From a virus (Duplodnaviria; Caudoviricetes), in IMG/VR virus record IMGVR_UViG_3300008448_006341, positions 1 through 63,993 of that record: a stretch of 63,993 bases of DNA; one strand, written 5' to 3'. The notes under the pieces were generated by a model. The model ran no database searches and was not told the origin of the DNA. It saw only the letters and a list, made by a program, of their open reading frames with translations. Shown in pieces: positions 1-63,141 of this stretch (its first letter is position 1; each line of letters begins with the position of its first letter). A program made the position numbers and the translations under genes.

Positions 1-219
1 GAGTTAAGTTTAATTGATCAGTTAGGTGTATTTTATCAACCAGCAGGCGCCGCACTTCGCGCAACATTCATTGTTGACCCAGACAACGTTATCCAACACG
101 TCACAGTCAACAACTTGAACGTTGGCCGTAGCCCAGAAGAAACGCTTCGTGTATTGGATGCGCTACAAACTGGCGAGCTATGTGCTTGTAATCGTACAGT
201 AGGCGGCGAAACACTTTAA
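1..219 (+). CDS. ahpC: Peroxiredoxin AhpC, 3' part (runs off window start)
   Basis: Frame 1 reads ...ALRATFIVDPDNVIQHVTVNNLNVGRSPEETLRVLDALQTGELCACNR...TAA; ahpD is nearby. Not in ORF track. Confidence 0.92.
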   Translation, partial: ELSLIDQLGVFYQPAGAALRATFIVDPDNVIQHVTVNNLNVGRSPEETLRVLDALQTGELCACNRTVGGETL

Positions 220-230
220 TCGGAGGATGT

Positions 231-635
231 ATGCTTGAATGTCTAATTGTTGGAGATAGTATTGCAGTAGGAGTAAGCCAAGTTCGTACAGAATGTCAGG
301 CCATTGTCAAAAGCGGTATTAATTCTGACAGTTGGAACAAACAGCATCTGCACAAACTCAAGCCAACTAAAACACTGATTATCAGTCTTGGAGCCAACGA
401 CCTTGGTGTCAACACAGAAGTTAACATACGTAAACTTCGAGAGGCTGCACAGGCTGACAGAGTGTTTTGGTTGTTGCCTAGTCAGAGATTAAAACCTGAT
501 CAGGTTCGTGCAGTTAAATTTGTAGCACAAGACTACAACGACACCGTTATACCAAGACCTGAACGGGATATAAGCAATGACGGTGTTCATCCGACCTATA
601 AAGGGTATAAAGTACTAGGAGAGTTAACAAGATGA
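231..635 (+). CDS. SGNH/GDSL hydrolase
   Basis: GDSIA, SLGAND and DGVHPT blocks. Confidence 0.85.
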   Translation: MLECLIVGDSIAVGVSQVRTECQAIVKSGINSDSWNKQHLHKLKPTKTLIISLGANDLGVNTEVNIRKLREAAQADRVFWLLPSQRLKPDQVRAVKFVAQDYNDTVIPRPERDISNDGVHPTYKGYKVLGELTR

Positions 636-1144
636 GTTGGGTAGACACACTTAAAGAAGCATTACCAGATTATGCTAAAGATACAAAATTAAATTTAGAT
701 GCAGTTATCAAACGTAGCTCAATACCAGAAGTTGAAGCCAACGGTTGCGCTCTAGCAGCCGCAATGGCCACAGGTAACGGTAAGCTACTTACTTGGATTG
801 CTAGTACCTTTGAAGATGTACAGGAAAGAGATGCCGCACTGACTGCTGCCGCAATTATGGCACAGAACAACATATGGTACCCCTATGTTGAAATGGCTGA
901 AGACGAACAGTTGAAAGGCCTGCCAGCACAGTTGCGTATGAATGCCATTGCCACGCATGGTGGAACTACCAAGGCACGTTTTGAAAGTTACAGTTTGGCA
1001 GCAAGTATTGTTGGCAAGTGTCACTTCTGTGTTAAGGCACACTACGACACACTCAAGAAGGAAGGCTATTCAGTAGAACAACTTCGTGACATTGGTCGTA
1101 TTGCCGCAGTGGTTAATAGTGTTGCTAAAGTATTGAATAGTTAA
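632..1144 (+). CDS. ahpD: Alkyl hydroperoxide reductase AhpD
   Basis: LPDYAKDTKLNL, MAQNNIWY and CHFCVKAH (CxxC) motifs; near ahpC. Confidence 0.92.
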   Translation: MSWVDTLKEALPDYAKDTKLNLDAVIKRSSIPEVEANGCALAAAMATGNGKLLTWIASTFEDVQERDAALTAAAIMAQNNIWYPYVEMAEDEQLKGLPAQLRMNAIATHGGTTKARFESYSLAASIVGKCHFCVKAHYDTLKKEGYSVEQLRDIGRIAAVVNSVAKVLNS

Positions 1145-1149
1145 AAATT

Positions 1150-1184
1150 TTGTAATCATTTTGTAATCTCTTTATGTTTAAATA
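1150..1184 (+). promoter_or_regulatory. Pho-box-like direct repeat followed by a TAAATA element upstream of pstS
   Basis: TTGTAAT at 1150 and 1161 (11-bp period), TAAATA at 1179. Confidence 0.6.
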
Positions 1185-1209
1185 ATGTTGTTACACAAGG
1201 AGATTTACA

Positions 1210-2214
1210 GTGAACAAACTACTAGCAATTCTATTAGCCGCAGTGTCTATATCAGCACACTCGGCAGACATCACAGGAGCAGGAGCTACCTTTCCGTTCC
1301 CAATCTATGCCAAATGGGCAGAAGGATATAAGAAAGCTACTGGCAACAGTTTGAACTATCAGAGCATTGGTAGTTCAGGTGGTATTAGGCAAATCAACGC
1401 AAAGACAGTAGACTTTGGTGCAACTGATGCTCCGGTAAAAGGTGAAGACCTAGACAAGAACGGACAAGTTCAATTCCCTGCTATCATTGGCGGAACAGTT
1501 CCTGTTGTTAATTTAGATGGTATCAAGCCTGGCGAATTAAAGATTACTGGACCAGTTATGGCTGAAGTGTTCTTGGGCAACATTACCAAGTGGAATGATC
1601 CTAAATTAACAGCACTAAACCCAGGCAAGGCATTACCAGATGCACCAATCACTATTGTACATCGTGCTGATGGCTCGGGTACAACATTCAACTGGACAGA
1701 CTACCTTGCTACTGTTAGTCCTGAGTGGTTGGCCCGTGTGGGTCGTGGTGCCGCAGTCAAATGGCCAGCAGCTACATCTGTGGGTGGCAAGGGCAACGAA
1801 GGTGTTGCAGCCAACGTTAACCGCATCAAAGGTTCAATCGGTTATGTAGAGTATGCTTATGTTAAGAAAAACAATATGGTATTCTTACAGCTACAAAATA
1901 AGAGTGGTAAGTTTGTTAGTCCAGATGACTTAACATTTGCCGCAGCCGCGGATGGCGCTGATTGGTTCTCAGTTCCTGGTATGGGGCTCAGCATTGTAGA
2001 TCAAAAGAATCCCAACGCATGGCCAGTAAGTTCTGCCAGCTTTATCATTATGTACAAGGAGCCAAAGAACAAGGCCAACAGCGATGAAGTGCTAAAGTTC
2101 TTTGACTGGGCATTTAAGAATGGTAAGAAAGATGCCATTGACCTAGACTATGTACCGTTGCCCGATGCCTTGACCAAACAGATTCGTGAACGAGTATGGA
2201 CACAGATCAAATAA
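1210..2214 (+). CDS. pstS: Phosphate ABC transporter substrate-binding protein
   Basis: Signal peptide; GAGATFP, YQSIGSSGG, DFGATD, RADGSGTT motifs. Confidence 0.97.
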   Translation: MNKLLAILLAAVSISAHSADITGAGATFPFPIYAKWAEGYKKATGNSLNYQSIGSSGGIRQINAKTVDFGATDAPVKGEDLDKNGQVQFPAIIGGTVPVVNLDGIKPGELKITGPVMAEVFLGNITKWNDPKLTALNPGKALPDAPITIVHRADGSGTTFNWTDYLATVSPEWLARVGRGAAVKWPAATSVGGKGNEGVAANVNRIKGSIGYVEYAYVKKNNMVFLQLQNKSGKFVSPDDLTFAAAADGADWFSVPGMGLSIVDQKNPNAWPVSSASFIIMYKEPKNKANSDEVLKFFDWAFKNGKKDAIDLDYVPLPDALTKQIRERVWTQIK

Positions 2215-2328
2215 GATAAGCTATATCATTACTATCTTTTAATGATTATCAGTATGTGAAACAGGGTAGTTTTACCTTATACTAACGATACATACTAATG
2301 CAGTATGTTTGTTAAAAGGAGATCTACT

Positions 2329-2400
2329 ATGTGGACTAAACCAGAAGCAACTGAAATGCGCTACGGTTTCGAGATTACAATGTACATTGCAACTCGTTAA
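2329..2400 (+). CDS. pqqA: PQQ precursor peptide PqqA (23 aa, MWTKPEATEMRYGFEITMYIATR)
   Basis: AGGAGA SD; MWTKP...GFE-x-x-x-Y signature; terminator follows. Below the ORF-track size cutoff. Confidence 0.92.
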   Translation: MWTKPEATEMRYGFEITMYIATR

Positions 2401-2422
2401 ACTGTTAGATAATGATCGTTTT

Positions 2423-2444
2423 AAAAGGGCCTTTGGGCCCTTTT
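2423..2444 (+). terminator. Intrinsic terminator
   Basis: AAAAGGGCC-TTTG-GGCCCTTTT. Confidence 0.8.
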
Positions 2445-2461
2445 ATTCTAATAAATAATCA

Positions 2462-3442
2462 ATGCGAGCACAAGAAGTTACCAACGAACAACGAAAACGT
2501 AAAAAGCCTAGATCTGCGGCATATGGCCCCGGAGCATTTGGCATGTATGGAACCGATGCAGGTTACAGCGGAGATGGGGGTGTAGCAGAAGATGCTGAAC
2601 CTATAGATCGTGAATTTGCATTAGTTAAAAAATTAGGTAGACTTGGTCAGCGTATTGTAGAAAATCCAAAACTTTGGGAAAAGTATTCTGACGCCATTGA
2701 CAACGACGATATTGATTGGATTATTAGTTTAATACAAGAAGGCACTGGTGCCGATAAAGATGAAATAATGAATCTCAGCGACTTGTTCGGTGAAATCGGT
2801 GGCGGCCTGGGACGAATTATAGATTTTGCCTGGGCTGTGAAAGAAGGTACCTGGGAAGAAGATTTTATGAATCCATATAGACAACATAGAAGTCAAGATG
2901 TGTCGGAAGGCAAGTTTAGAGCTAACGACATAGAAGAATACAAACCCGGCAAAGAAGCATTAAATGATCTTAAGAGTAGATTCTTACCAGACTGGGAAAT
3001 GCTAGATCATAAGACACTACAGGCCAAATATGTAGCTAAAGATCATAGACATGCAGAACAGTTTACAAAGTTTATTAATAAATTATCTGAACGCATGGAT
3101 CACTTTGCTGAAGTAACACAAGACGTTGCAGAAATCACAGTAAAGACCACTACATTTGATGTTAAGGGTCTTACTCTATTAGACTTTCAATTGGCAATGA
3201 TTGTAGATAACTTTGCCGAGAAAGCTGATATTGAACAGGTAAGAATGAGCGGAAACTTTGGCATGTATGAAAACTTTGCCGACGGCAAGAACCCGCAGGA
3301 CAAAGGCGACAGTAAGCGACACGGTATCAATACCAAAGCCAGTGTAAGTTCATTACGTAAGACTGCTAAACAAGGCGGACGTAAAGGACAACTAGCACAT
3401 TGGTTAGCTAATATGAAAGCAGGCAAGGCAAAGAAAAAATGA
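2462..3442 (+). CDS. Modular putative virion protein with an internal pterin-4a-carbinolamine dehydratase-like domain
   Basis: MRAQEV N-terminus; LPDW...KY...F...MDHFAEV...TTFDVKGLTLLDFQLA resembles the PCD fold; basic C-terminal module. Confidence 0.6.
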   Translation: MRAQEVTNEQRKRKKPRSAAYGPGAFGMYGTDAGYSGDGGVAEDAEPIDREFALVKKLGRLGQRIVENPKLWEKYSDAIDNDDIDWIISLIQEGTGADKDEIMNLSDLFGEIGGGLGRIIDFAWAVKEGTWEEDFMNPYRQHRSQDVSEGKFRANDIEEYKPGKEALNDLKSRFLPDWEMLDHKTLQAKYVAKDHRHAEQFTKFINKLSERMDHFAEVTQDVAEITVKTTTFDVKGLTLLDFQLAMIVDNFAEKADIEQVRMSGNFGMYENFADGKNPQDKGDSKRHGINTKASVSSLRKTAKQGGRKGQLAHWLANMKAGKAKKK

Positions 3443-3843
3443 GAGCATACGAGTTCATCCGCAACAGTAGATCAAATCCTGCCAAAGAAGATTACCATCC
3501 AAACGATCCTCCACCGGGCCCAGAGTTTAAACCCAAGATGCCTGCAGGTACTGTAAGAGTAGATGTCAGTGATGTCTATGATTGGTACAAGTTAGGACAA
3601 CATATTAGCAATCTTGATAGAGTAGATCCTAAAATATTTGGCAAAGGCCCACCTAGTACAATTATATCGTTTGGCGACGAAGAAACAGAGCACAAGTATA
3701 TCAATGCTTTAAAGAAGCTAGGTCTTACCACTACTGATATTGATCCAGTAGATCCTAATCAACCTAAAGGTATGCCACGTCAAAAAGTTGATCCTACATT
3801 TGATGTTGAAGATTCCAATAAGCCAGAAAAGAAAAACTTTTAA
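3439..3843 (+). CDS. Hypothetical protein, M-R-x-x-E-F family
   Basis: ATGA-coupled ORF starting MRAYEF. Confidence 0.7.
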   Translation: MRAYEFIRNSRSNPAKEDYHPNDPPPGPEFKPKMPAGTVRVDVSDVYDWYKLGQHISNLDRVDPKIFGKGPPSTIISFGDEETEHKYINALKKLGLTTTDIDPVDPNQPKGMPRQKVDPTFDVEDSNKPEKKNF

Positions 3844-3930
3844 CTATATCTGTCAACGCAGACTGTAGGTAAGGCGTTATATATGTATACAGATAAATTT
3901 CTGTATATTAACCAAAAAAGGAAACTTTAT

Positions 3931-4149
3931 ATGAAATTAGTTGCAACTTTAATCGCTTCGTTATTTGCCGTATCTGCCTTTGCCGCTGAGCCAGCAAAGA
4001 AAGCAGAAGCCAAACCTGCTGCCGCAGCCCCTGCTCCAGCCGCTAGTGCTCCAGCCGCACCCAAAGCTGATGCCACTAAAAGTGAAGCCAAACCTGCCGC
4101 TAAAAAGGACGACAAAAAGGCTGCTGAGCCAGCTCCAGCAAAGAAGTGA
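3931..4149 (+). CDS. Secreted Ala/Pro/Lys-rich low-complexity protein
   Basis: AAGGA SD; signal peptide MKLVATLIASLFAVSAFA; PAAK-type repeats. Confidence 0.8.
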   Translation: MKLVATLIASLFAVSAFAAEPAKKAEAKPAAAAPAPAASAPAAPKADATKSEAKPAAKKDDKKAAEPAPAKK

Positions 4150-4320
4150 TATAGAAGACAGTGATACCTGCAATGGATCTGAAGATATTGAACTACATGT
4201 TGGATATCGAAGACCAGAACTAATTCGAGTAGATGTCATCGACGATGATAATGATTTGAGTGAGTATGTAAGGTTAAGACTGTTTATTGCTAGGATCAAA
4301 GCTTTAGAAGCTTACAATAG

Positions 4321-4348
4321 AAAATGGGCTGCTTGACAGCCCATTTTT
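4321..4348 (+). terminator. Intrinsic terminator
   Basis: AAAATGGGCTG-CTTGA-CAGCCCATTTTT. Confidence 0.75.
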
Positions 4349-4349
4349 C

Positions 4350-4378
4350 TTGACTGTTATATCTATATCAAGTATAAT
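4350..4378 (+). promoter_or_regulatory. Sigma70-type promoter
   Basis: TTGACT-N17-TATAAT. Confidence 0.8.
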
Positions 4379-4409
4379 ATGTTTACTTTATCCATTCTCT
4401 GGAGCATAT

Positions 4410-4973
4410 ATGATTACCCTAAAAGAGTTTCTCGAAACAATTGACTACAAAATTACCGAAGGCAGCGAGTACTACTGGAATTGCTTTGGCCCAGATGCAT
4501 ACAGTTTAGATCATTGGGACGGTGATCACGAAGGCTGTGCCCTGCATGTGGTCTTTGACAAGACTAGTCAAACTGTCTATACAGTAGAAGCACACGATTA
4601 TACTAACCGCCGCAGTTATCGATTAATTAACAGTGAGTTCAAAGAAGCACATGACAACGAAGTTACTGCCAGAGGCATTGACGATGTGGCCTATGACGAT
4701 GTTAACTATATTGATTTAGAAAGTGCAGAAGATTGGTTAGAAAAAGCCCGTGCTATCTTTCTTGGAGAAGACTACGATACTCGTGTGAGTATCCCGCTAG
4801 ACATTCCCAAAGACGATCTCTACACTTATATGTTGGCTGCACATGAACGCGACATGTCACTTAATGAGTTCGTTGAAGAAGCAATTCGTAATGCTGTAAA
4901 AGAACTTGAGCAGGATCCAGAAGGTTTTAAACAACGAGCAGAGCGGTGGAAGCATGAAAAAAATATTCTATGA
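4410..4973 (+). CDS. Hypothetical phage protein, possible C-terminal ribbon-helix-helix
   Basis: GGAG SD before ATG 4410; AAHERDMSLNEFVEEAI is HicB/RHH-like. Confidence 0.7.
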   Translation: MITLKEFLETIDYKITEGSEYYWNCFGPDAYSLDHWDGDHEGCALHVVFDKTSQTVYTVEAHDYTNRRSYRLINSEFKEAHDNEVTARGIDDVAYDDVNYIDLESAEDWLEKARAIFLGEDYDTRVSIPLDIPKDDLYTYMLAAHERDMSLNEFVEEAIRNAVKELEQDPEGFKQRAERWKHEKNIL

Positions 4974-5418
4974 GAAACAGGGACGACGATACATTCCTGT
5001 GGCGGAGTATGATAACGAGCTTTTGGACTCACTGCCCAAAGGTGCTCATTTGGTTATGGTTTACCCTGGAGGTAGCTCTCGCCGTTTTAACATTGATCCT
5101 AACTATGCGGGAATGATTGCCGCAGGTCGTGTTGCTGAAGATGCTATTTGTAAAGCCATTAACAAAGCCAGTGAACTACGCCCTAAACAGACTCCTCTCA
5201 CAGAAGGACAACGTCGAGCATGGCGCAAGTTAGCCAAAGAGTTTGGCGATGAACTGTGTACCCTGCACGGTGCTAGCACTCACGACATTGCCGAAGCAGG
5301 AGTTAAAGCTATGATGACCGAAGCAGATAAGCTCATGGCCAATCCTACTGTGCGTAAGTCTTTTGAAAAGTTTATCATGCTCTGCGAATTGACAAAACAG
5401 AATGAACCTCACAATTAA
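4954..5418 (+). CDS. Hypothetical phage protein
   Basis: Overlap-coupled ORF (MKKIFYE...). Confidence 0.75.
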   Translation: MKKIFYEKQGRRYIPVAEYDNELLDSLPKGAHLVMVYPGGSSRRFNIDPNYAGMIAAGRVAEDAICKAINKASELRPKQTPLTEGQRRAWRKLAKEFGDELCTLHGASTHDIAEAGVKAMMTEADKLMANPTVRKSFEKFIMLCELTKQNEPHN

Positions 5419-5719
5419 AAAGACTGATAAACGGCATACCGGAGGAGGGCAATGGAAGTGGCTGGTCATTGTAGAACGTAGACCTGCTGTGCCCTATGGT
5501 AGTCCTGCAATGATTCAAAAGACTCAGGATCTTAATGAGATTAGAGATTGGTGCTGGCAAACCTACGGTGCTAGCTGTGAGTTAGAATTTTGGCTGCGTG
5601 TACCTGAAGACGGACAAAAAAGAAATGAAAAGTGGTGTTGGCACACTAACTATGACAACTTTAAAATTTATCTACGCACAGATAAAGAAGTAAACTGGTT
5701 TAAGTTGAAATGGCTATAA
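5402..5719 (+). CDS. Small protein, F-x-L-[KR]-W C-terminal family
   Basis: DWCWQTYG ... WFKLKWL. Confidence 0.75.
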   Translation: MNLTIKKTDKRHTGGGQWKWLVIVERRPAVPYGSPAMIQKTQDLNEIRDWCWQTYGASCELEFWLRVPEDGQKRNEKWCWHTNYDNFKIYLRTDKEVNWFKLKWL

Positions 5720-5725
5720 CTCAGT

Positions 5726-5944
5726 ATGCGTGAAGTTATTATACCAGATAAGAATGCTAATGAAATTATGGAACTCGTAAAGGAGTTACGCCAGCACGGA
5801 CTAATACAGGGACAGGACTTCGATTTTAAGTATCAACCCCCTGTCTGGGATGACTTCAGTGGACATGCCGTACATGAAAAACATACTGTGTTTTATTTTC
5901 ATACAGAAAAGTATGCAACCTTTTTTCAATTAAAATGGTCATGA
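5726..5944 (+). CDS. Small protein, F-x-L-[KR]-W family
   Basis: Ends FFQLKWS. Confidence 0.7.
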   Translation: MREVIIPDKNANEIMELVKELRQHGLIQGQDFDFKYQPPVWDDFSGHAVHEKHTVFYFHTEKYATFFQLKWS

Positions 5945-6234
5945 GAAAGAAGCGCCTGCTCACTGATCGTTCTGGTGATCTACAAGAACAAATAATAGCA
6001 AAACAATCAAAACGAATAGCAGACGAGGTAGATGCTGAAGTCTTACGAAACATGCTCTGTGAAATAGGGTGGCATCAAGTTATTGTTCCTCGACCTATGA
6101 CCTACGAACAAAGCAATGAACTTGATCAATGGCTTCGTGATAGTATTAAAGGCCGCCATTGGGATCGAGGATTAGTATTCTTATTTGAAGAAGAACGTGA
6201 TGCTATGTGGTTTAAGTTGAGGTGGCTATCATGA
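5941..6234 (+). CDS. Small protein, F-x-L-[KR]-W family
   Basis: Ends FEEERDAMWFKLRWLS. Confidence 0.7.
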   Translation: MRKKRLLTDRSGDLQEQIIAKQSKRIADEVDAEVLRNMLCEIGWHQVIVPRPMTYEQSNELDQWLRDSIKGRHWDRGLVFLFEEERDAMWFKLRWLS

Positions 6235-6416
6235 TTAGCTTCGATGTTAAACCAAATGTTACCTATGATGTAATCTATGTTGAAGGCAATATTGCCCCTG
6301 CCCTAGAATGGTGTAATAAAACTTTTGGTCCGCCGGGTGACCGCTGGTTTATATCTAACCATAGGTTCTATTTCTTGCAGGAAAAAGATGCTATGCTATT
6401 TGAATTAAGGTGGTAA
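6231..6416 (+). CDS. Small protein, F-x-L-[KR]-W family
   Basis: EWCNKTFG ... EKDAMLFELRW. Confidence 0.7.
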   Translation: MISFDVKPNVTYDVIYVEGNIAPALEWCNKTFGPPGDRWFISNHRFYFLQEKDAMLFELRW

Positions 6417-6417
6417 T

Positions 6418-6774
6418 ATGAAGTTCTATCAAAAGTATGACATGCAGGTATATCCAAGCCAACGCAAGATGCGTAGGATTCCTCATATGCGTAACTATAC
6501 TAATCTATGGAACATAGATGTATCCGATTCGGCTGTTTATCAACATACTTTTGATGTTGAAGAAGTAGAATGTGTTGATGTAGTCATGCCTAAAGATAGA
6601 CTAGAAGAATTAGAACGTATGATAGAATGGTATGAAAACAGAGAACACAAGATAAAACAACAAGCAGAAATAGTTGAGATGCTACGCAGAGATGAACGTG
6701 TACGCATAGAGTATCCTGCTGTACAAAAAGCCTATATGAAGTATCTAACCTTGTTGGAGTTATGTAGAAAATGA
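6418..6774 (+). CDS. Hypothetical phage protein
   Basis: Tightly packed ORF; C-terminal PAVQKAY motif similar to ORFs 4954 and 7102. Confidence 0.7.
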   Translation: MKFYQKYDMQVYPSQRKMRRIPHMRNYTNLWNIDVSDSAVYQHTFDVEEVECVDVVMPKDRLEELERMIEWYENREHKIKQQAEIVEMLRRDERVRIEYPAVQKAYMKYLTLLELCRK

Positions 6775-6989
6775 TTTTTAAAACCTGTGAAGTAGGTATA
6801 TTTAGACTGCCTGGCATAGTTATAGAGTCTGAAGAAGATGAAACTATTTCTGAAGAAGCACTTAAAGAAATGGAAGACTGGTGTAACAGCGAGTTTGGTA
6901 AAGGAATACGTATGACTGAAAGACTGTTTAGTTTTCGTAAAGAAAGTCAACGTGACTGGTTTATATTAAGATGGAGTGGAAAAGAATGA
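6771..6989 (+). CDS. Small protein, F-x-L-[KR]-W family
   Basis: DWCNSEFG ... RDWFILRWS. Confidence 0.7.
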   Translation: MIFKTCEVGIFRLPGIVIESEEDETISEEALKEMEDWCNSEFGKGIRMTERLFSFRKESQRDWFILRWSGKE

Positions 6990-7105
6990 CTGAAGGCGAA
7001 CGAGCAGGCCGCTGGGCTATGGTATATCTCTATACGGCGTTGTTTGCTTTATGGTTTAATATTATCTGCATTGTTGGTTGGCATATCAAGGAGTGGTTTT
7101 TATGA
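6986..7105 (+). CDS. 39-aa single-pass membrane peptide
   Basis: MTEGERAGRWAMVYLYTALFALWFNIICIVGWHIKEWFL; ATGA overlaps at both ends. Confidence 0.6.
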   Translation: MTEGERAGRWAMVYLYTALFALWFNIICIVGWHIKEWFL

Positions 7106-7488
7106 TTAAAGGAATAAATTCGAGCGGCCGTTATCTAACTGTGTCTGGCGGCACAGCATCTAACCCATACATTAGTCCGGGTAGTGTGGGTGCAGGCATG
7201 ATGAGATACAATCCTAATATGAATTGTATCGAAGTTAACGACGGTAACAGTTGGCAACAGTTGGGTGTGAGTTATGCCACTGTTGAACTCAATCCAGATA
7301 CTGAGGCACTATTAGAGTGGGCAAGACTAGAACGTACTAAACAACGAATCCTTGCAGAGCGCATTGAACAAAACCCTGCACTGAAGAAGGCGTATGCAGC
7401 CGTAGTTCGAGCACAGGAAAACTTTGATATCCTAGATAGGATTGTCGGAGATGATTTAGATAGAGAACTCCGCGAGATTGCGCCATAA
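7102..7488 (+). CDS. Hypothetical phage protein
   Basis: AAGGAG SD; coupled ORF. Confidence 0.7.
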   Translation: MIKGINSSGRYLTVSGGTASNPYISPGSVGAGMMRYNPNMNCIEVNDGNSWQQLGVSYATVELNPDTEALLEWARLERTKQRILAERIEQNPALKKAYAAVVRAQENFDILDRIVGDDLDRELREIAP

Positions 7489-7495
7489 ATAGTTA

Positions 7496-8305
7496 ATGAA
7501 GAAATTTTTACTTACATTAGTATTGTCTGCGTCTACACTATATGCAGGGGCAGCACAGAGCTCCTGGGGTCTCTATGACTATCAGCTAGGCAAGTATCAG
7601 CAGGCTGCAAACACTGATGATGTCCGCAGTATTGCCAGCATTACTAAACTGTTTACTGCTACTACTATTCTACGATCTGGGTTAGATCTCAACGAACGAG
7701 TAAAAGTCACAGGGCGCAGTGGTGGAAGATTCCCCAAAGGTACTATGGTACGCAGGATTGATCTTATGAAAGCCATGTTGATCAGTTCGGATAACCTAGC
7801 TGCCGAAACACTGGCTAACACCTACCCAGGTGGCTTTAGTGTTTTTATAACAGAAACAAATCAGTGGGTTAGAGGTTGGGGATTGATAGATACCACTATT
7901 GTCGATGCCAGCGGGCTATCCCCAGGCAATCAAAGTTCAGTTAATAATCTTGTAACTCTTATCTATAAGATTAGACAGTACCCTGAAATATTAAACATCA
8001 GTGCAGAATCTAATACAATCTTAAAAGTTAACAAAGGCAAGAAAGAAATAAAGATTCATTTAAAGAATACTAATCCAGAAGTATTTGTCTTTGATAACAT
8101 TGTATTAAGTAAGACTGGCACAACCAATGCCGCAGGTAGATGTGTAGTCATGCTAGTTGAAAAAGCCAACGGCCTACACGGCATTGTTGTACTAGGCAAG
8201 CATAACTCTAAAGAAAGAAGTACATTGGCACAGGCATTGTTAAAAATAGTACCTGTATCAAATGCCAATGCCAGCCAAGATGAATACGAAATAACATTCC
8301 CTTAA
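7496..8305 (+). CDS. D-Ala-D-Ala carboxypeptidase/endopeptidase (peptidase S11, PBP7-like)
   Basis: Signal peptide; SITK (SxxK), SDN (SxN) and KTG motifs. Confidence 0.9.
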   Translation: MKKFLLTLVLSASTLYAGAAQSSWGLYDYQLGKYQQAANTDDVRSIASITKLFTATTILRSGLDLNERVKVTGRSGGRFPKGTMVRRIDLMKAMLISSDNLAAETLANTYPGGFSVFITETNQWVRGWGLIDTTIVDASGLSPGNQSSVNNLVTLIYKIRQYPEILNISAESNTILKVNKGKKEIKIHLKNTNPEVFVFDNIVLSKTGTTNAAGRCVVMLVEKANGLHGIVVLGKHNSKERSTLAQALLKIVPVSNANASQDEYEITFP

Positions 8306-8652
8306 TGTCAGTAACTTCAATTAAATCAGATACAGGGCATCTAGGACCTACTCCTAGACAGCAGACTTATGAGAATATGGTCATTGATGGATACGCTCAT
8401 AGGATCTATAATATTACTGTGCATCAGTTCACAATGGGAGATGTAGATGATTTTGAAATCTACGTAGCACAACCATTGTGGGAGTGGCAGGAAACCGAAA
8501 TGGGCTCCTGGATTATGAAACACGCTGTTGAATCGCCTACATGGCATAGAATGACAGACTACACTTCTTTTGGACATCGTGTTGCAATCACAGCCAAACT
8601 CAAAGGCAAGGATCATACCTATTGGCAACTCAAATGGGGAACTGCCGCTTGA
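8305..8652 (+). CDS. Hypothetical protein ending in an L-K-W motif
   Basis: Ends TYWQLKWGTAA. Confidence 0.7.
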   Translation: MSVTSIKSDTGHLGPTPRQQTYENMVIDGYAHRIYNITVHQFTMGDVDDFEIYVAQPLWEWQETEMGSWIMKHAVESPTWHRMTDYTSFGHRVAITAKLKGKDHTYWQLKWGTAA

Positions 8653-8677
8653 CCGTTGGCTTAAAATCAGCTATAAT
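8649..8677 (+). promoter_or_regulatory. Sigma70-type promoter
   Basis: TTGACC-N17-TATAAT. Confidence 0.75.
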
Positions 8678-8708
8678 AAAGCTATTGTAAACTTCACTAC
8701 TTAAACAC

Positions 8709-9065
8709 ATGGACGCAATCATTTTTTTCTTCGTTGGGTTTCTTTGTGGTTGGTTCTGGCATGCTAGAACTATGCTTAAAAGGATCTTACAAAACCCTCA
8801 AGAGATGATTACTCTTTTGGAAAAGTACAAAGTTGAAAACGACAAAGTACAGACAACAGTCGGCGACAGCATCCGCCCTGTTAAAGTAGAGAAACATGGT
8901 GAACAGTTTTATCTCTATGCTGACGACAATGGCGAGTTTCTAGCACAGGGCAGTTCTATGGAAGAAGCCCTAGACATCATTGCCAAACGATTCCCAGATC
9001 AAAACTTCCGTGGCCTGATTCCAAAAGACCAAGCTGAGAAGATGGGTTTGAGCAAACAAAGTTAA
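8709..9065 (+). CDS. Membrane-anchored hypothetical protein
   Basis: N-terminal hydrophobic helix. Confidence 0.7.
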   Translation: MDAIIFFFVGFLCGWFWHARTMLKRILQNPQEMITLLEKYKVENDKVQTTVGDSIRPVKVEKHGEQFYLYADDNGEFLAQGSSMEEALDIIAKRFPDQNFRGLIPKDQAEKMGLSKQS

Positions 9066-9083
9066 ATTAGTCAACCGTTTTGC

Positions 9084-9112
9084 TTGACCTAGTTCTTGTA
9101 TTGTTTTATAAT
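9084..9112 (+). promoter_or_regulatory. Sigma70-type promoter
   Basis: TTGACC-N17-TATAAT, followed by GTTAGCA 9 nt downstream. Confidence 0.8.
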
Positions 9113-9160
9113 AATAGAACGTTAGCAATTAAAGCTAACACTAACAAGGAAACTAAAATT

Positions 9161-9436
9161 ATGATTAAGCATTTCAATCCAGAAACAAAGACATTCAAGT
9201 TGTTCAACGCCCTGTACAAGGGTGACGCTGTTACAGCTAGCCAAGCAGAAAAGCGTTTTGGCATCAAGAACATCTCAGCAGAAGTAAGCCGCATCCGTCA
9301 AAACGGTTATGCAGTTTACACTAACAGCCGTACCGCTGGTAACGGTGTTAAAGTTACCGAGTATGTTATTGGCAAGCCAAGCCGCAAGTTAGTTGCCGCT
9401 GGTTACAAAGCAATGGCACTCGGCCTTGTTGACTAA
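9161..9436 (+). CDS. Winged-helix DNA-binding protein
   Basis: AAGGA SD; VTASQAEKRFGIKNISAEVSRIRQNGYAV HTH-like; own promoter and terminator. Confidence 0.7.
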   Translation: MIKHFNPETKTFKLFNALYKGDAVTASQAEKRFGIKNISAEVSRIRQNGYAVYTNSRTAGNGVKVTEYVIGKPSRKLVAAGYKAMALGLVD

Positions 9437-9454
9437 TCTCAACTAGCTCTAGCC

Positions 9455-9477
9455 AAGCCCCGCAAGGGGCTTTTTTT
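9455..9477 (+). terminator. Intrinsic terminator
   Basis: AAGCCCC-GCAA-GGGGCTTTTTTT. Confidence 0.9.
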
Positions 9478-9482
9478 ATGAC

Positions 9483-9490
9483 TATAAATA
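9483..9490 (+). promoter_or_regulatory. T4-type late promoter
   Basis: TATAAATA directly after the terminator. Confidence 0.75.
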
Positions 9491-9506
9491 CCCAGTGAGG
9501 TAAGTT

Positions 9507-10328
9507 ATGAAAGTTCTTGTCACTGGCCCTAATGGCTTTATTGGTCGTAACATGATTAGTTGGTTACACCACAACGAATATCAAGTAGATGGTTGGGATT
9601 GGGATCCTAAAGATTTTCCCGATGTACGAGACTATGACTGGGTAATACATCTAGGCGCAATTGCCGATATGCGAGAAAACAGCATAGATAAAGTTCTTAC
9701 ACAAAATTTAGACTTTAGTCAACGACTATTTGAAGAATGTCAATATCACGGCGTGCATCTACAGTATGCTAGTTCTAGCTCTGTATACGGTAATACCAAA
9801 GACTTTTCAGAGTATGCAGAGTGCTACCCACAGACTGTATATGCGTGGAGCAAGTATCTGTTTGATCGCTGGGTGTTTAATCAAAAGCCTACTATAATGG
9901 TACAGGGCTTTCGTTACTTCAATGTCTACGGCAAATGGATGCACCTGCGTGGTAGTCGTGCTAATGCTATCTATAAATGGCGTCAGCAGGCTCGCAAGCA
10001 GGGCTACATAGAAGTATGGGAAGGTGCTGAAAACATCTTTAGAGACTGGACTTGGGTAGGTGATGTATGTCGCTTACACACAGACTTTATAGAGCAGGTA
10101 AAAGGCAGCGGAATATGGAATGTAGGCTCAGGTCTACCGCACTCATTTCTAGACATTGCTGAAACTATTGCTGAACAGGAAGGCGTAGAAATACAAAGAA
10201 TTCCTATTCCAGAAGAAGAAAAAACACGTATGCGAGTTAAAACCTGTGCAAATTTAGAAAAATTAAAGTCTACAATAGGAAAAAGACCCTGGCTAAATGT
10301 TTATGAATGGCTTGATCTAGAAAGCTAA
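9507..10328 (+). CDS. rfaD: NAD-dependent epimerase, ADP-L-glycero-D-manno-heptose 6-epimerase-like
   Basis: TGPNGFIG, YASSSSVYG, YAWSK (YxxxK), GFRYFNVYG. Confidence 0.75.
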   Translation: MKVLVTGPNGFIGRNMISWLHHNEYQVDGWDWDPKDFPDVRDYDWVIHLGAIADMRENSIDKVLTQNLDFSQRLFEECQYHGVHLQYASSSSVYGNTKDFSEYAECYPQTVYAWSKYLFDRWVFNQKPTIMVQGFRYFNVYGKWMHLRGSRANAIYKWRQQARKQGYIEVWEGAENIFRDWTWVGDVCRLHTDFIEQVKGSGIWNVGSGLPHSFLDIAETIAEQEGVEIQRIPIPEEEKTRMRVKTCANLEKLKSTIGKRPWLNVYEWLDLES

Positions 10329-10339
10329 TAAATATATAC

Positions 10340-10585
10340 ATGAAAGTCCACGAAATTATTTCAGAAGTAAAAGCCGGCAGAGATCTTTGTTTAAGCACTA
10401 AACCTAACAGTGAATTAGGTGCTAGCCAGTTGGCCAGCTGTAAATCACAGGGCCTACGTGCTAGAGAAGGCAACAAAAGCCATAAAATGGGTAAAAGTCC
10501 AAAGAGCCGTATGGTCATGGGCGGCCACAAAGTCAAAGGTAAAAAGTACGGTGGCAAGATCCCAGACTGGGGTACCCGTAAATGA
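10340..10585 (+). CDS. Small basic putative virion protein
   Basis: MKVHEIISE N-terminus; TAAATA upstream. Confidence 0.7.
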   Translation: MKVHEIISEVKAGRDLCLSTKPNSELGASQLASCKSQGLRAREGNKSHKMGKSPKSRMVMGGHKVKGKKYGGKIPDWGTRK

Positions 10586-12135
10586 GATTTAACGAATTTA
10601 AATTAACAGAAGCAAAGTCTAACGACTTCTACACAGTGGGCGACAGTCATGCTAAAGGTGTAGGCACAGCTTCACGTTTAAGTGCTGCAACTAATCTAGC
10701 TGTTGACGGAGCGGCTGCTCACGGCAGAGGTAGAGGCCGTGAAATGTTGGCAAACATTGTTAAAATCCCCAAAGGTGCTAACGTATTGATTTCTGTTGGG
10801 GCGAATGACACGGCTGATGTAGTAAAACAGAATGTAGACAGTCAAGGTAAAACAAGACTACCACCTGTAAGCAAGATTGTAGGTGATGTGATGAAAGTAG
10901 TTAACGCTGTTAAAGAGCAAAGCCCAAATAAAATTGTGTTTATGTTATTTCCCAACGGCGACAACAAGAAAACAAAATACTATGCTGGGGACTATCAAAA
11001 AGAAGTACGAGATGCACTTAAAAGTGCAGTAGGTGTTAAAGTCATTGACTACGACGGAAGTCCAATGCAGAACGATGGTATACATTATCAATTTGATGTT
11101 TATAAGAAAGCAGGCACAGATGCTAGAAAAGAATTTGGTGTTCCGGCTCCTGTAGGCAATCCAGATGCAAACCCAGCTGTAGTTCCAACCAAAGAAAAAC
11201 CTGGCGACACAGTATCGAATACAGGATCGAATACACAATCGAATACACAATCGAATACAGGATCGAATACAGCATCACAGGAAAATAAACCTAATCTTAA
11301 TGATCCTAGGGTCGCTGGAATGTTCAAAGGTAACGCTCCTAAAGACAATGATAAAGACATAACTGTTGATCTTTCTGTGGGCCCTGGAAAGAACTATTAC
11401 AATCCAAAAGGAATTAAACAAACATCGCCAAATACAGTCACACCTGGCAGTGATAGCGGATCTAATACAACGTCTCCGGTTGTAGTCGCTCCTGGTACTA
11501 ACACTAACAAAGACCCAGGGGCATCTAATACAAAACCACCTGTGGTGACAGCACCGCCGGCTAATCAAGATAAAAAAGACAATAACAGCGAAAGGATTGG
11601 AAATTTACCAACGATTTACCAACGCTCTGTGACATCAGGACAAATTGGTCAAGTGCTTGATCTACTTGCTTCATGTGAAAGTAATGGTTATTATAATATT
11701 GTATTCCGTAAAGGTAAAGTAAACAAACGTATCAACGGATTAGAAAACGCTACCATAGCAGCCGTTATGACATTCCAAGTAGAACTTAAGAAACAAAACG
11801 GTGCAAGGGGCAGCGATGCTGTAGGACGATATCAGTATGTCGGCGGCACCCTTAAAGAAATGGTTGAGATTATGGGGTTGAATAAAACAGTTACAAGATT
11901 TAGTCCAGAGACACAGGACTCTATTGCAACCGCTGACATGCGTCGACGCTGTGATCTAGACAAATGGCTTGCTGGCAGTATATCTCATATAGATTTCCTA
12001 GAAAAATTATCTAGAGTTTGGGCAGGTTTGCCATGTCCTAGTAACGGTGGAAAAAGTTATCACCGATACGATACAGCACAGACTACTTTAGCCATAGCAT
12101 TAGATGCACTTAAAAAAATACGTGAAAGAAAATGA
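10582..12135 (+). CDS. SGNH esterase - linker - lambda-R/GH104-like lytic enzyme fusion
   Basis: GDSHA, VGAND, DGIH; C-terminal CES...Y, AVGRYQ, FSPETQD, WAGLP. Confidence 0.75.
   Translation: MRFNEFKLTEAKSNDFYTVGDSHAKGVGTASRLSAATNLAVDGAAAHGRGRGREMLANIVKIPKGANVLISVGANDTADVVKQNVDSQGKTRLPPVSKIVGDVMKVVNAVKEQSPNKIVFMLFPNGDNKKTKYYAGDYQKEVRDALKSAVGVKVIDYDGSPMQNDGIHYQFDVYKKAGTDARKEFGVPAPVGNPDANPAVVPTKEKPGDTVSNTGSNTQSNTQSNTGSNTASQENKPNLNDPRVAGMFKGNAPKDNDKDITVDLSVGPGKNYYNPKGIKQTSPNTVTPGSDSGSNTTSPVVVAPGTNTNKDPGASNTKPPVVTAPPANQDKKDNNSERIGNLPTIYQRSVTSGQIGQVLDLLASCESNGYYNIVFRKGKVNKRINGLENATIAAVMTFQVELKKQNGARGSDAVGRYQYVGGTLKEMVEIMGLNKTVTRFSPETQDSIATADMRRRCDLDKWLAGSISHIDFLEKLSRVWAGLPCPSNGGKSYHRYDTAQTTLAIALDALKKIRERK
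11215..11274 (+). repeat. Five 12-nt tandem coding repeats (SNT[GQA])
   Basis: TCGAATACA-(GGA/CAA/CAA/GGA/GCA). Confidence 0.95.
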
Positions 12136-42036: not shown

Positions 42037-42092
42037 ACAAATTCCTAAAAAGAAGTTACAATACGAGCTGTGTTTAACTTTAGGAGTTTGAT

Positions 42093-42494
42093 TTGTCAAT
42101 GCATTTAGAAGGCCCGTGGCTCAGTACTACAGGCAAACGAAAAGGTAAACAAAAGTTTGCATCTGCTGATGCCAAACGAAAGAGTGAACAATTGGACAAA
42201 GAATGGAAAGAGCTTCAAAAACGTTGGGGTGTTGAAGCAGAAGAAAAGAAACGTGTTCGTGCATTGTCTGCACCTGCACTAGGTAGTTCGGGTTATTCTT
42301 TGAGAATTCCCGAAGGACGTAATACTACTGCTCATATCAAGAGCGTAGACACTGGTTTGGGCAATGCTGTATTAAAGCCAGCCAAACAGTATACCGGTAC
42401 CAAAGTTAAGGGTATCGCTACTATGCATAAATCTAATGCTGTACCTGTTTTTTCCGACGAAGAGGCAGTGGACATTAGTAAAATGCGTAGATAA
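42093..42494 (+). CDS. Basic hypothetical phage protein
   Basis: AGGAG SD; TAGACA-N17-TACAAT at 42034; GIATMHKSNAVPVF. Confidence 0.75.
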   Translation: MSMHLEGPWLSTTGKRKGKQKFASADAKRKSEQLDKEWKELQKRWGVEAEEKKRVRALSAPALGSSGYSLRIPEGRNTTAHIKSVDTGLGNAVLKPAKQYTGTKVKGIATMHKSNAVPVFSDEEAVDISKMRR

Positions 42495-42554
42495 TACTGA
42501 TGTAAATAAGTTGCTGATTCGTTGATCAGTTAATCCCGCGTAAAGGAGAAAGAA

Positions 42555-43088
42555 ATGATACGCTTTATAAAATTATTACTAATAGCCCTAGGATTAGCCA
42601 TTGTTGGCTTGATTGGCTACAAAGCTGTTATGTATAAACTTGATGCCAGTAGGCAGACAAGTTTTATAAAAGGAACCGCAGTTACCGCTGAAGTGCGTAA
42701 CAAACAATTAGAGTGTCTTGCTCGTAACATTTATTACGAAGCAGGCGGCGAGCCTTTTGAAGGTAAAGTTGCTGTGGCACAGGTTACTATTAACCGAGCC
42801 AACAGTGGAAAATTTCCCGAAGATATTTGTAGGGTGATTTATCAAAAGAATGTAGTCTACGACAAAGTAGTTTGCCAATTCAGTTGGTATTGTGAAAGCC
42901 CTAGTGGAATTAAACCACGCAATGCGGCTGTTTACAAAGAATCTGAAATTGTAGCACGACAGGTCCTTTTGGAGAACTTTAGATTGCCTAGTTTGAAAGA
43001 TGCATTGTACTTTCATGCTACGCATATAAACCCCAAATGGAACAAAGAAAAAGTAGCAGTTATTGGTGGTCATATTTTTTATAAATGA
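42555..43088 (+). CDS. SleB/Hydrolase_2 cell wall hydrolase with N-terminal anchor
   Basis: CLARNIYYEA, AVAQVTINR, CQFSW, IGGHIFY. Confidence 0.92.
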   Translation: MIRFIKLLLIALGLAIVGLIGYKAVMYKLDASRQTSFIKGTAVTAEVRNKQLECLARNIYYEAGGEPFEGKVAVAQVTINRANSGKFPEDICRVIYQKNVVYDKVVCQFSWYCESPSGIKPRNAAVYKESEIVARQVLLENFRLPSLKDALYFHATHINPKWNKEKVAVIGGHIFYK

Positions 43089-43099
43089 AAGAGGATTAT

Positions 43100-43420
43100 A
43101 TGCAAGTAAATTTGAGAGATCTAGTTAACATTCGTAAAATTATGGACAATATTCGCGAGAACATTGGTCATTTAAGTGCAGAAACTTTGGGCTGGGTAGC
43201 AGTAATTCTTATCCATTTAGCCACTATTCCTACTTTGGTTGCTGTACTTACTGGACTTACAGAAAAACTGCCCCCAGTTGACATTGTAGTATTGATGTGG
43301 TTGGGTCTTTTTATGTTCTTTGTACGCTCAGTTATTGCAAAAGACCTACTAAACATCATTACTATTGGGTTTGGCTTCTTTGTACAAGCGGTATTACTGG
43401 CCCTAATCGTTTTTAAATGA
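43100..43420 (+). CDS. Three-helix membrane protein (holin candidate)
   Basis: Hydrophobic segments; follows the cell wall hydrolase. Confidence 0.55.
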   Translation: MQVNLRDLVNIRKIMDNIRENIGHLSAETLGWVAVILIHLATIPTLVAVLTGLTEKLPPVDIVVLMWLGLFMFFVRSVIAKDLLNIITIGFGFFVQAVLLALIVFK

Positions 43421-49518: not shown

Positions 49519-49821
49519 ATGCCTACCACCGAAATTCAAATTGATGAAAAGATTAAAAGCAAAATTTCTGAACCTAAACGCTGGAAAGTTGTACTACTAA
49601 ACGATGATACTACTCCAATGGACTTCGTCATGGGTGTACTCACAGAAATTTTTAAACACACTCAAGAGACAGCTAAAGAAATTACTCTAGAGATACATAC
49701 TACAGGTAGTGGCATTGCCGGCGTCTATAGTTTTGAAATCGCTGAAGTAAAAGCAGTAGAGGCAACTCAACTAGCAAGAGCTAATGGCTTCCCACTCCAG
49801 ATCAAAATGGAAGAAGAATGA
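49519..49821 (+). CDS. clpS: Clp protease adaptor ClpS
   Basis: VVLLNDDTTPMDFV, EIHTTG, GFPL. Confidence 0.95.
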   Translation: MPTTEIQIDEKIKSKISEPKRWKVVLLNDDTTPMDFVMGVLTEIFKHTQETAKEITLEIHTTGSGIAGVYSFEIAEVKAVEATQLARANGFPLQIKMEEE

Positions 49822-50351
49822 GCCTAAAAGAAATAACCAAAGATTTACACACAGAAGCAGAACGAACTATATTTGCCAAAAAGTTAATCAAAGGCGATCT
49901 TACCACAGAAGAATACGCTAACTATCTTTGGCAAATGGTACTTGTTTATAACGGCATTGAAGTTGCTGCCAACAGTCAGGGCATGTTAAAAAACTTACCT
50001 GATATAGAAAGAACGCACAAAATTTATCAAGACTGTATAGAACTAGTAGGTCCACATCATACACTGAAATGGAATCCCACTACTGTCGAATACTATCAAT
50101 ATCTCCTAGCATTAAACTACAATCAAGATCGTAAACATCTAGTTAAAGCACACATGTACTGCCGTCATATGGGAGACCTGTTTGGCGGACAGATGATCAA
50201 AGGTCGTGTTCCTGGCAAAGGTAAGTTCTATGAGTTCAAAGATCCAGAAGGACTCAAAATGGCCATACGTGCTGAACTTACAGATGACCTCGGAGAAGAG
50301 GCTCGCGTAGCGTTTCAATGGGCTATTAAACTTATGGAAGCACTACAGTAA
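49818..50351 (+). CDS. Heme oxygenase
   Basis: LKEITKDLHTEAE, HMYCRHMGDLFGGQ. Confidence 0.9.
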   Translation: MSLKEITKDLHTEAERTIFAKKLIKGDLTTEEYANYLWQMVLVYNGIEVAANSQGMLKNLPDIERTHKIYQDCIELVGPHHTLKWNPTTVEYYQYLLALNYNQDRKHLVKAHMYCRHMGDLFGGQMIKGRVPGKGKFYEFKDPEGLKMAIRAELTDDLGEEARVAFQWAIKLMEALQ

Positions 50352-50983
50352 TGTTAGAAACAATCTGCGAAACACTAGTAGAAGCCTATCGTCGTAATTG
50401 GATTACTAGCCGTGACGGCAACGTTAGTATACGGCACCACGATCGAGACCACTTCTATATTACACCCAGCGGTGTACGTAAACAAACTCTACAGCCTGAT
50501 CAATTTAAGAAAATTGGCATTATGTTTCAACCAGTCAATCGGTGGAATCATACAGATCTACCGTATACTGATATCAGCGCCAATTTAAAACCAAGTGGAG
50601 AGTTGCCTCTTCACTTTGGACTACAAAAAATGATGGGACAACACAGTAACGATGTTCGAGTAGTAGTACATGTACATCCTACATATTGTATCGCCGCAAT
50701 GCACGCCGGGATTGATCTCAGCACTATCAGCAGTGATTTTCCTGAACTTAATCGCTACACAAAGGTAGCACCCAATGTAGGCGATGTGCCTCCTATCAGC
50801 CAAGAGCTAGCTGATCGCTGTCACGAAAATTTACAGCTAGATGAATACGGCAACATTGCCTATGATATCGTAGGTATTAAAGGACACGGAGTTGTTGCCA
50901 TTGATACTAGCCCGTGGCGTGCGTTTGAACACATAGAACGACTAGAACACATTTGTAAAATTGTATTAGCGAGTAAAATATGA
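50351..50983 (+). CDS. Class II aldolase/adducin family protein
   Basis: DGNVS, ITPSG, PSGELPLH, VHVHP, GHGV. Confidence 0.9.
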   Translation: MLETICETLVEAYRRNWITSRDGNVSIRHHDRDHFYITPSGVRKQTLQPDQFKKIGIMFQPVNRWNHTDLPYTDISANLKPSGELPLHFGLQKMMGQHSNDVRVVVHVHPTYCIAAMHAGIDLSTISSDFPELNRYTKVAPNVGDVPPISQELADRCHENLQLDEYGNIAYDIVGIKGHGVVAIDTSPWRAFEHIERLEHICKIVLASKI

Positions 50984-55053: not shown

Positions 55054-55150
55054 TCAGGTAGCTGAAAAATTATGGAAGGAAACTGTTTTAAAACATAACG
55101 CAGAAAAGAGCGATTTAAATCCAAATAATAAAAACAAAGGAGCGGATTAA
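54989..55150 (+). CDS. 53-aa basic ORF overlapping the csgG end
   Basis: GAGGAG SD; MSWFKKTP...; stop 1 nt before the next ATG. Confidence 0.4.
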   Translation: MSWFKKTPNLKRTEKHLPQRSSQVAEKLWKETVLKHNAEKSDLNPNNKNKGAD

Positions 55151-55151
55151 A

Positions 55152-55832: not shown

Positions 55833-55833
55833 A

Positions 55834-63066: not shown

Positions 63067-63141
63067 ATGGATGATGATTTAACAAGATTTGTAATCGGAT
63101 TTGTTGCTGTAGTGACAGTGATGTTACTGATCTTGTTGTAA
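63067..63141 (+). CDS. 24-aa hydrophobic peptide
   Basis: TAAATA-N4-ATG; MDDDLTRFVIGFVAVVTVMLLILL. Confidence 0.45.
   Translation: MDDDLTRFVIGFVAVVTVMLLILL

Follow-up and report, generated by a model that had tools for sequence, protein, structure and literature searches.

A stand-alone pqqA gene, probably useful to the phage, in a fragment of a freshwater T4-like myophage

The stretch of viral DNA analyzed here (IMG/VR record IMGVR_UViG_3300008448_006341, 63,993 nucleotides in full; hereafter the window) carries close to its left end a 23-codon open reading frame that, judged by its profile matches, is a genuine pqqA gene. The gene is probably useful to the phage. The reading that we favor, and with reasonable confidence, is that the phage has kept it as an auxiliary gene, the peptide of which would serve as a consumable substrate for the PqqB-E proteins that the host is presumed to encode; expression of the gene, conversion of the peptide and benefit to the phage are what we infer.

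The pqqA gene and its stand-alone status

The pqqA ORF occupies positions 2329..2400 of the plus strand, from the ATG at 2329 to the TAA at 2398-2400, as read from the sequence and the ORF list, and encodes a peptide of 23 residues. The peptide scored above the cut-off with both curated models of the family, i.e., Pfam PqqA (PF08042; 33.9 bits, cut-off 21.1, E = 2.9e-8) and TIGR02107 (35.5 bits, cut-off 20, E = 6.3e-9), and a six-frame search of the whole record with the PqqA profile yielded 34.2 bits (E = 2.7e-9). In view of these E-values, the match is more than chance. The Glu-x3-Tyr pair from which PQQ is formed is intact (Glu15 at 2371-2373 and Tyr19 at 2383-2385), as is the N-terminal W-x-x-P leader (W2 and P5), which we take to be the element recognized by PqqD. 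The length also falls within the range of the family (~20-40 aa). Another mark of the family, a position adjoining pqqB-E, was found neither in the window nor in related records; it is not a mark of every member, since orphan copies are common in Methylophilaceae (PMC4109929). The first-pass annotation, made from the letters alone, had proposed a 23-aa pqqA ORF at this position with an E-x-x-x-Y motif, and both the ORF and the motif are borne out. Its remark that the gene had been missed by the ORF track fits the absence of the exact peptide from a collection of ~15 billion predicted proteins.

An alternative in-frame ATG at 2305, which would give a product of 31 aa, was rejected, since it has no Shine-Dalgarno (SD) sequence and falls inside the upstream hairpin described below; position 2329 was thus taken as the start. 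All of the extracted homologues begin at the equivalent position.

Among the 83 window ORFs of at least 72 aa, none contained a PqqB-, PqqC- or PqqE-type domain according to Pfam, and no six-frame match to PqqD was detected in any of five records, the window included. The earlier statement that the window lacks pqqBCDE therefore stands. Record and window coincide; the record is linear, with a CheckV completeness of 13%, and the term stand-alone applies to this fragment. At such a completeness, the rest of this phage's genome could contain pqqB-E or a PQQ enzyme. The search was extended to five pqqA-bearing IMG/VR records, termed G001 (163.5 kb, 93%), G002, G003, G004 (231 kb, 66%) and G005 (172 kb with terminal repeats, 100%). 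PqqE, PqqC, PqqB and PQQ alcohol dehydrogenase were not found above the cut-off in these records, and the sole signal was a generic radical-SAM match in G004 (25.5 bits versus a cut-off of 381). All five bacterial positive controls were recovered when PqqC was searched for. PqqC and PqqE were likewise absent from the five complete genomes of cultured phages (Melnitz, Venkman, P19250A, MEP402 and MEP301). The first-pass annotation had named a search for other pqq genes as a check, and none came to light in any of these genomes or in the window. The closest relative of the window phage is G003, whose virion protein and CsgG are 77% and 80% identical to those of the window, respectively, while identities of 29-31% mark G001 and G005 as distant.

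Recurrence in other phages and the surrounding cassette

When 50,697 phage records were searched with the peptide by tblastn, 12 matches were obtained. Nine were from cultured phages of Methylophilales/Methylophilaceae, namely Melnitz (four records), MEP401, MEP402, Venkman, MEP301 and P19250A, and one was from an uncultured spring podovirus. The remaining two, contigs designated "Acinetobacter phage", in reality contain a chromosomal pqqABCDE operon and served as a positive control. In contig CAKLQF020000010.1 ("Acinetobacter phage MD-2021a"), ppk, pqqABCDE and a dipeptidase gene follow one another in chromosomal order, and the contig is probably of bacterial origin and misfiled under a phage name. 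Stand-alone copies (E <= 4e-4) were thus present in ten phage records, nine of them from cultured phages of methylotrophic Methylophilales. Seven of the 12 matches were inspected; in the six phage copies the ORF was either unannotated or lay under a call on the opposite strand, while an SD sequence was present and the core of the peptide was intact. Since the gene is unannotated in cultured phages and the peptide is missing from the large protein collection, pqqA is systematically missed by gene callers.

In IMG/VR, the pattern G-F-E-[VI]-T-M-Y was found at no fewer than 120 loci, and all 120 of those listed were PqqA-type short ORFs. The longer regular expression R-[FY]-G-F-E-I-T-M-Y-I was found at 119 loci or more, and 115 of the 119 listed were of the PqqA type. 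Among the matches listed, the viral copies nearest to the window peptide are L358 and, in G003, L368, each of which shares 22 of its 23 residues. The two further checks proposed in the first pass, a match to the PqqA profile and the small ORFs of other phages, thus turned out positive, the first with both curated models as well as in the six-frame search, and the second in the phage records as well as in IMG/VR.

Selection on the leader was estimated from 130 distinct 23-codon viral ORFs, which were picked by geometry only and whose codons 2-10 lie outside both search patterns. For these codons, pS was 0.47, pN was 0.17 and dN/dS was 0.27; W2 and P5 were invariant in all 130 ORFs, though not demanded by the search. 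The leader of pqqA is under purifying selection. Both IMG/VR patterns demanded Glu and Tyr, and the conservation of these residues in the two sets is therefore circular; the ten tblastn matches in phages constitute an independent sample, in which all six of the stand-alone copies extracted retain both residues. Of 110 viral peptide types, only one also occurs among the 81 bacterial types collected.

The gene is part of a compact cassette, all on the plus strand. A promoter-like site of putative function (GTGAAA, 16 nt, TATACT) is located at 2256..2283, with the -10 hexamer at 2278-2283. The hexamers score 9/12, and shuffles of this AT-rich region score equally well; in an alignment of 20 viral cassettes, a TATAAT-like hexamer stands at a constant distance of 5-6 nt before the hairpin. 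Directly after the -10 box is a 5' stem-loop (2284..2313), with arms ACATACT (2290-2296) and AGTATGT (2302-2308), a folding energy of -8.7 kcal/mol and a z of -3.1; one of 200 shuffles folds as well. Its motif occurs once in the 64-kb window, versus 0.03 occurrences expected. The SD sequence AAGGAG (2316-2321) precedes the ATG by 7 nt. The gene is followed at 2422-2445 by a GC-rich, intrinsic-terminator-like hairpin with a T run (10-bp stem, 4-nt loop), which folds at -16.0 kcal/mol (z = -4.2) and is matched by none of 200 shuffles. Both a strong SD and a terminator of its own had been ascribed to the gene from the sequence, and both were recovered. The terminator was not listed by a simple terminator scan, apparently since the T run is taken up by A/U pairing in the stem. 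Within the cassette, the sole change in contigs of four lake metagenomes is at 2434 in the terminator loop, where all four read C rather than T, converting UUUG to UUCG and leaving the stem intact. In an Rfam search of positions 2100-2600, the best result was a sub-threshold match to an sRNA (18.5 bits versus 38).

The same order of elements, i.e., a TATAAT-like box, the same stem after a gap of 5-6 nt, an A/T-rich spacer, the SD sequence, pqqA and a terminator, was observed in 20 distinct viral loci, which were chosen by the sequence of the stem among the IMG/VR matches listed. Their terminators are GC-rich and unrelated in sequence. The core pairs of the hairpin are invariant across the 20 loci, a set selected by that very sequence, and show no covariation above a shuffle control. 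The ACATACT hairpin module was detected in none of 150 bacterial pqqA loci (120 + 30), which do carry an SD sequence and a terminator; other viral pqqA loci have a different hairpin in the equivalent place. In a wider set of 201 unique viral pqqA loci, the SD core was present in 190, and the mean minimum free energy (MFE) was lower than that of shuffled sequences both in the 38 nt upstream (-5.5 versus -2.3 kcal/mol) and in the 60 nt downstream (-13.7 versus -7.8). A stem finder, the background of which is high, reported hairpins at 154 of the 201 viral loci and at 228 of 404 random places; the combination of a hairpin with a -10 box was found at 65 of 201 and 30 of 404, respectively, with a different stem picked in the window. 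The claim of structure upstream of viral pqqA rests on the MFE comparison and not on this finder.

The phage, its gene neighborhood and its probable host

By its gene content, the window is a fragment of a freshwater T4-like myophage that is rich in host-like genes. Nearly all of its genes are encoded on one strand. Among 50 ORFs compared with PHROGs were a virion structural protein (phrog_1645, E = 2e-130), an exonuclease, a PAAR protein, a 2OG-Fe oxygenase and an endolysin-like domain; Pfam models identified both the alpha and beta subunits of ribonucleotide reductase (RNR), MazG and an Mtd_N tail-fiber domain, together with host-like genes for DnaK, Hsp20, ClpS, IscU/IscA, heme oxygenase, bilin reductase, CsgF/CsgG and PstS. 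The nearest relative of the virion protein is encoded by a viral contig from a freshwater spring (59%), followed by those of T4-like cyanomyophages (~50%). CsgG was found in only seven phage records, the nearest being OM43 phage Melnitz (48%) and pelagiphage HTVC008M (46%). The window PstS is 53% identical to proteobacterial PstS versus ~40% to that of cyanophages. A megablast search with positions 1-12000 gave no match among the phage records.

The pqqA gene sits in a bona fide phage genome. The virion protein, exonuclease, PAAR and RNR genes lie downstream of it on the same strand, and the upstream flank in the window consists of host-like genes only: according to Pfam, a plus-strand block at 1..2214 encodes an AhpC fragment (1-219), an SGNH hydrolase (231-635), an AhpD/CMD protein (632-1144) and PstS (1210-2214). 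The GC content of this block is 43.6% versus ~40-41% in the remainder of the window. In viral loci L346, L367 and L371, pqqA comes immediately after an AhpC-[SGNH]-AhpD series, an arrangement found in part in L423 and L447 as well; the proteins encoded there are 74-97% identical to their window counterparts, and the AhpC-AhpD-pqqA block lies within viral contigs of 100-164 kb. The AhpC gene itself, which is cut at the start of the window, is 85-97% identical in other viral contigs, which suggests that AhpC and AhpD are a phage-carried peroxide-defense pair.

Elsewhere, the neighbors of the gene vary. SGNH and pqqA are adjacent in L365, L376 and L339, pqqA is followed by PstS in L384, and in L358 and L368 it stands beside homologues of the window genes at 42084-43417. 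In the closest relative, G003, the cassette occupies a position that differs from that in the window, beside a cell-wall hydrolase module, and in other contigs it is beside Hsp20 or an exonuclease. One metagenome contig apparently joins 1146 to 2278, thereby skipping PstS, with a shorter side of only 27 nt (weak).

Downstream of the cassette and outside it, a plus-strand gene at 2462..3442 encodes a protein of 326 aa with a pterin-4a-carbinolamine dehydratase domain. This gene was considered as a synteny guide to the cassette and rejected, as none of the best 80 of 446 loci with its relatives had pqqA within 4 kb. Over its last ~60 residues, the protein has matches of 88-98% identity in dozens of viral contigs (L274-L328) that are alike in this tail only, while the pterin-dehydratase middle is common to only ~25 contigs among the best 80 of 446. 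The tail looks like a highly conserved, basic C-terminal module fused to varied N-termini.

Several other features of the window were observed in passing. A tmRNA gene of the permuted, two-piece type, encoding a tag of 26 residues, is located at 63116-63588; a two-piece tmRNA is also described for Melnitz, in the part of the paper available (PMC9004378). A region at 53747-58859 encodes CsgF, CsgG, two curlin-repeat proteins (55152-55832 and 56916-58859) and a FecR-domain protein. According to the same part of that paper, Melnitz and the pelagimyophages do not carry the curlin genes csgA and csgB (PMC9004378); given the curlin-repeat proteins here, the window phage may have a fuller curli module. 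Directly after this block, a 684-aa protein with a CHASE2 sensor and adenylate/guanylate cyclase domains is encoded at 59316-61370. Genes for heme oxygenase, a class II aldolase and a ferredoxin-dependent bilin reductase stand in a row at 49818-51660, a pigment-type set that contrasts with the otherwise proteobacterial-looking host-like genes. The CheckV values of 13% for 64 kb in the window and 21% for 75.7 kb in G003 would imply a genome of ~360-490 kb, well above the 140-220 kb of cultured T4-like relatives.

The first 10 kb of the window were matched in 20 DNA runs of 13 studies, mostly lake or freshwater metagenomes. No RNA runs matched positions 1-10000, a result that has no bearing on expression. 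Near-identical contigs from four runs of four studies bridge positions 2093-2659 and 2236-2659 and thereby link PstS, pqqA and the downstream gene; at a likeness of 85%, further pqqA cassettes, with flanks that differ, align to this region as well.

With regard to the host, the pattern R-[FY]-G-F-E-I-T-M-Y-I, searched over one genome per species, produced at least 120 matches, of which those listed were nearly all Burkholderiales sensu lato (Burkholderia, Paraburkholderia, Caballeronia, Variovorax, Comamonas, Polaromonas, Rhodoferax, Limnobacter and Rhodocyclaceae, with a few Rhodanobacteraceae). The best full-length identity among the bacterial matches listed was 17 of 23 residues. From the order to which one such locus belongs, 401 genomes were sampled evenly. 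Of these, 108 had a match, the best being 83% and 78% identical, and several contained three to seven copies of pqqA; three unpublished genomes (G304, G036 and G389) are part of this tally and of no other claim. The leader of the window peptide equals that of a six-copy genome, and its tail is of the Paraburkholderia/Caballeronia type. Overall, the peptide is 74-83% identical to chromosomal PqqA and resembles other viral copies (22 of 23 residues, among the matches listed) more closely than any bacterial copy compared. The best matches of the window DnaK are proteins of 80-84% identity. From these sequence affinities, the host was probably a PQQ-making betaproteobacterium, and by analogy with the cultured phages, Methylophilaceae are the obvious candidate. 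The PQQ-using host suggested in the first pass fits the distribution of stand-alone copies, concentrated as they are in phages of methylotrophs.

Proposed role, alternatives and known systems

According to the favored reading, pqqA would be transcribed on its own, from the sigma-70-type -10 box, into a short RNA with a stabilizing stem-loop at its 5' end and a strong terminator at its 3' end, and the strong SD sequence would direct translation of the 23-residue peptide. Host PqqD would then bind the peptide, host PqqE would cross-link Glu15 and Tyr19, and host PqqF/G, PqqB and PqqC would trim and oxidize the product to PQQ. In the pathway that leads through PqqD, PqqE, PqqB, PqqC and peptidase steps to PQQ, one peptide is spent per molecule of PQQ, while the enzymes are reusable. 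Because the peptide is consumed in this manner, the phage would top up the sole consumable component of the pathway, and the periplasmic PQQ dehydrogenases for methanol, alcohol or sugar would stay supplied during infection. The bacteria themselves appear to pull the same lever of precursor supply, since, in the parts of the two papers available, Methylophilaceae are described as carrying 3-12 copies of pqqA with a single pqqBCDEFG set (Beck et al. 2014, PMC4109929), and an orphan pqqA as being among the most highly expressed copies in a PQQ-overproducing methylotroph (PMC9851590). The same portion of the latter paper suggests PqqB and PqqC as possibly rate-limiting, which counts against the supply reading (PMC9851590).

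Three other explanations were weighed. The phage peptide might act as a decoy or inhibitor that titrates host PqqD/PqqE or gives a dead-end product, such that PQQ synthesis is shut down. The constraint on the leader, the part that PqqD would recognize, would be expected for a decoy as well, and the phage copies do form sequence types of their own. A decoy would not, however, need the Glu and Tyr residues, which are intact in the independent tblastn sample; the window peptide is also close to chromosomal PqqA, and hosts are themselves described as multiplying pqqA in the excerpt available (PMC4109929). We consider this explanation very improbable. Hardly less so is the notion that pqqA is a passenger without benefit, captured recently with host DNA or left over, for example, from an integration site, and not effectively expressed. 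The gene does end a host-like block of elevated GC content, and its position is not conserved with respect to the downstream gene. Yet more than 200 viral loci retain an intact ORF, SD and terminator, the dN/dS value is low, the promoter and hairpin module is phage-specific with respect to the 150 bacterial loci, the same cassette occupies another position in G003, and the bridging contigs from four studies retain the order of PstS, pqqA and the downstream gene. The integration-site variant was rejected for this phage, as none of the 83 ORFs scanned had an integrase domain.

PQQ or a related product might alternatively serve another purpose, such as redox protection in a peroxide-stress module with AhpC and AhpD. 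The recurrence of the AhpC-[SGNH]-AhpD-pqqA block among viral contigs is in keeping with such a module. The adjacency is not general, however, as shown by the cell-wall hydrolase, Hsp20 and exonuclease neighbors of other copies, and to our knowledge no pathway links AhpC/AhpD with pqqA; PqqC itself releases peroxide. This explanation is unlikely. The supply of a precursor to the host pathway thus remains our preferred interpretation, and the in silico checks (profiles, small ORFs of other phages and searches for pqq genes) support the first-pass annotation in that respect.

A broader proposal is put forward only tentatively, and we regard it as doubtful: that phage pqqA is more than a host gene once captured, the cassette being a mobile, self-contained unit that evolved inside phages, hopping among positions and among lineages of large freshwater myophages, and that a PQQ-precursor bottleneck is exploited in Betaproteobacteria well beyond the methylotrophs. 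The latter part may hold because the E-I-T-M-Y-I core matches that of Burkholderiales generally and not that of the cultured methylotroph phages. If the supply reading is true, the phage gives its host a stoichiometrically consumed substrate rather than an enzyme, which would be a compact form of metabolic take-over, and a gene of 72 nt would be a cheap marker of PQQ-making hosts. Viral contributions to methanol and alcohol oxidation in lakes are probably under-counted, since gene callers miss pqqA. The promoter-hairpin-terminator cassette offers a concrete, testable unit for expression.

Viral pqqA is already known, while the structure and proposed mobility of the cassette were not found in print. 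The novelty implied by the first-pass annotation was too high: in the portion of their paper available, Coutinho et al. 2020 (Microbiome 8:163, PMC7678222) reported PqqA and methanol dehydrogenase in T4-like phages of Lake Baikal predicted to infect Methylophilaceae (VP_266), and for related populations they described viral genes for methanol dehydrogenase and radical-SAM proteins. Neither the structure of a cassette nor any copy in a cultured phage is mentioned in that portion. A 2026 paper lists, in the part available, viral pqqA, pqqD and pqqE among phosphorus-cycling genes (PMC13188868), and the corresponding part of the Melnitz paper mentions PQQ only as a medium ingredient (PMC9004378). 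A full-text literature search, covering main texts, revealed no paper describing pqqA in cultured phages.

As in VP_266, the gene in the window belongs to an uncultured freshwater T4-like phage and is read as a PQQ booster for methanol oxidation, a likeness that is drawn by description from the accessible part of that report (PMC7678222). Unlike VP_266, which has a methanol dehydrogenase and a GC content of 35%, the window has a GC content of 40.5%, and a PQQ dehydrogenase was detected neither in it nor in the five related or pqqA-bearing records. Closer at the level of the gene are the cultured phages Melnitz, Venkman, MEP301, MEP401/402 and P19250A, which carry stand-alone ORFs of 23-24 codons with an SD sequence, 65-77% identical to the window peptide; Melnitz also shares the CsgG pore with the window phage. 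These carriers are marine or LD28 phages of four morphotype lineages, their core is E-V-T-M-Y-V versus E-I-T-M-Y-I in the window, and in Venkman and MEP301 pqqA is antisense to its neighbors.

On the bacterial side, the operon pqqA of the Acinetobacter contig belongs to the same family, with the same length and Glu-x3-Tyr core and 59% identity to the window peptide; unlike the window gene, it is directly followed by pqqB, C, D and E. Orphan chromosomal pqqA genes do not have the phage-type -10 box and ACATACT hairpin (0 of the 150 loci), but each copy has its own SD sequence and terminator, as in the window. Like the orphan copies of Methylophilaceae, in the account available (PMC4109929), the phage gene stands away from pqqB-E and would follow the same logic of supply by copy number.
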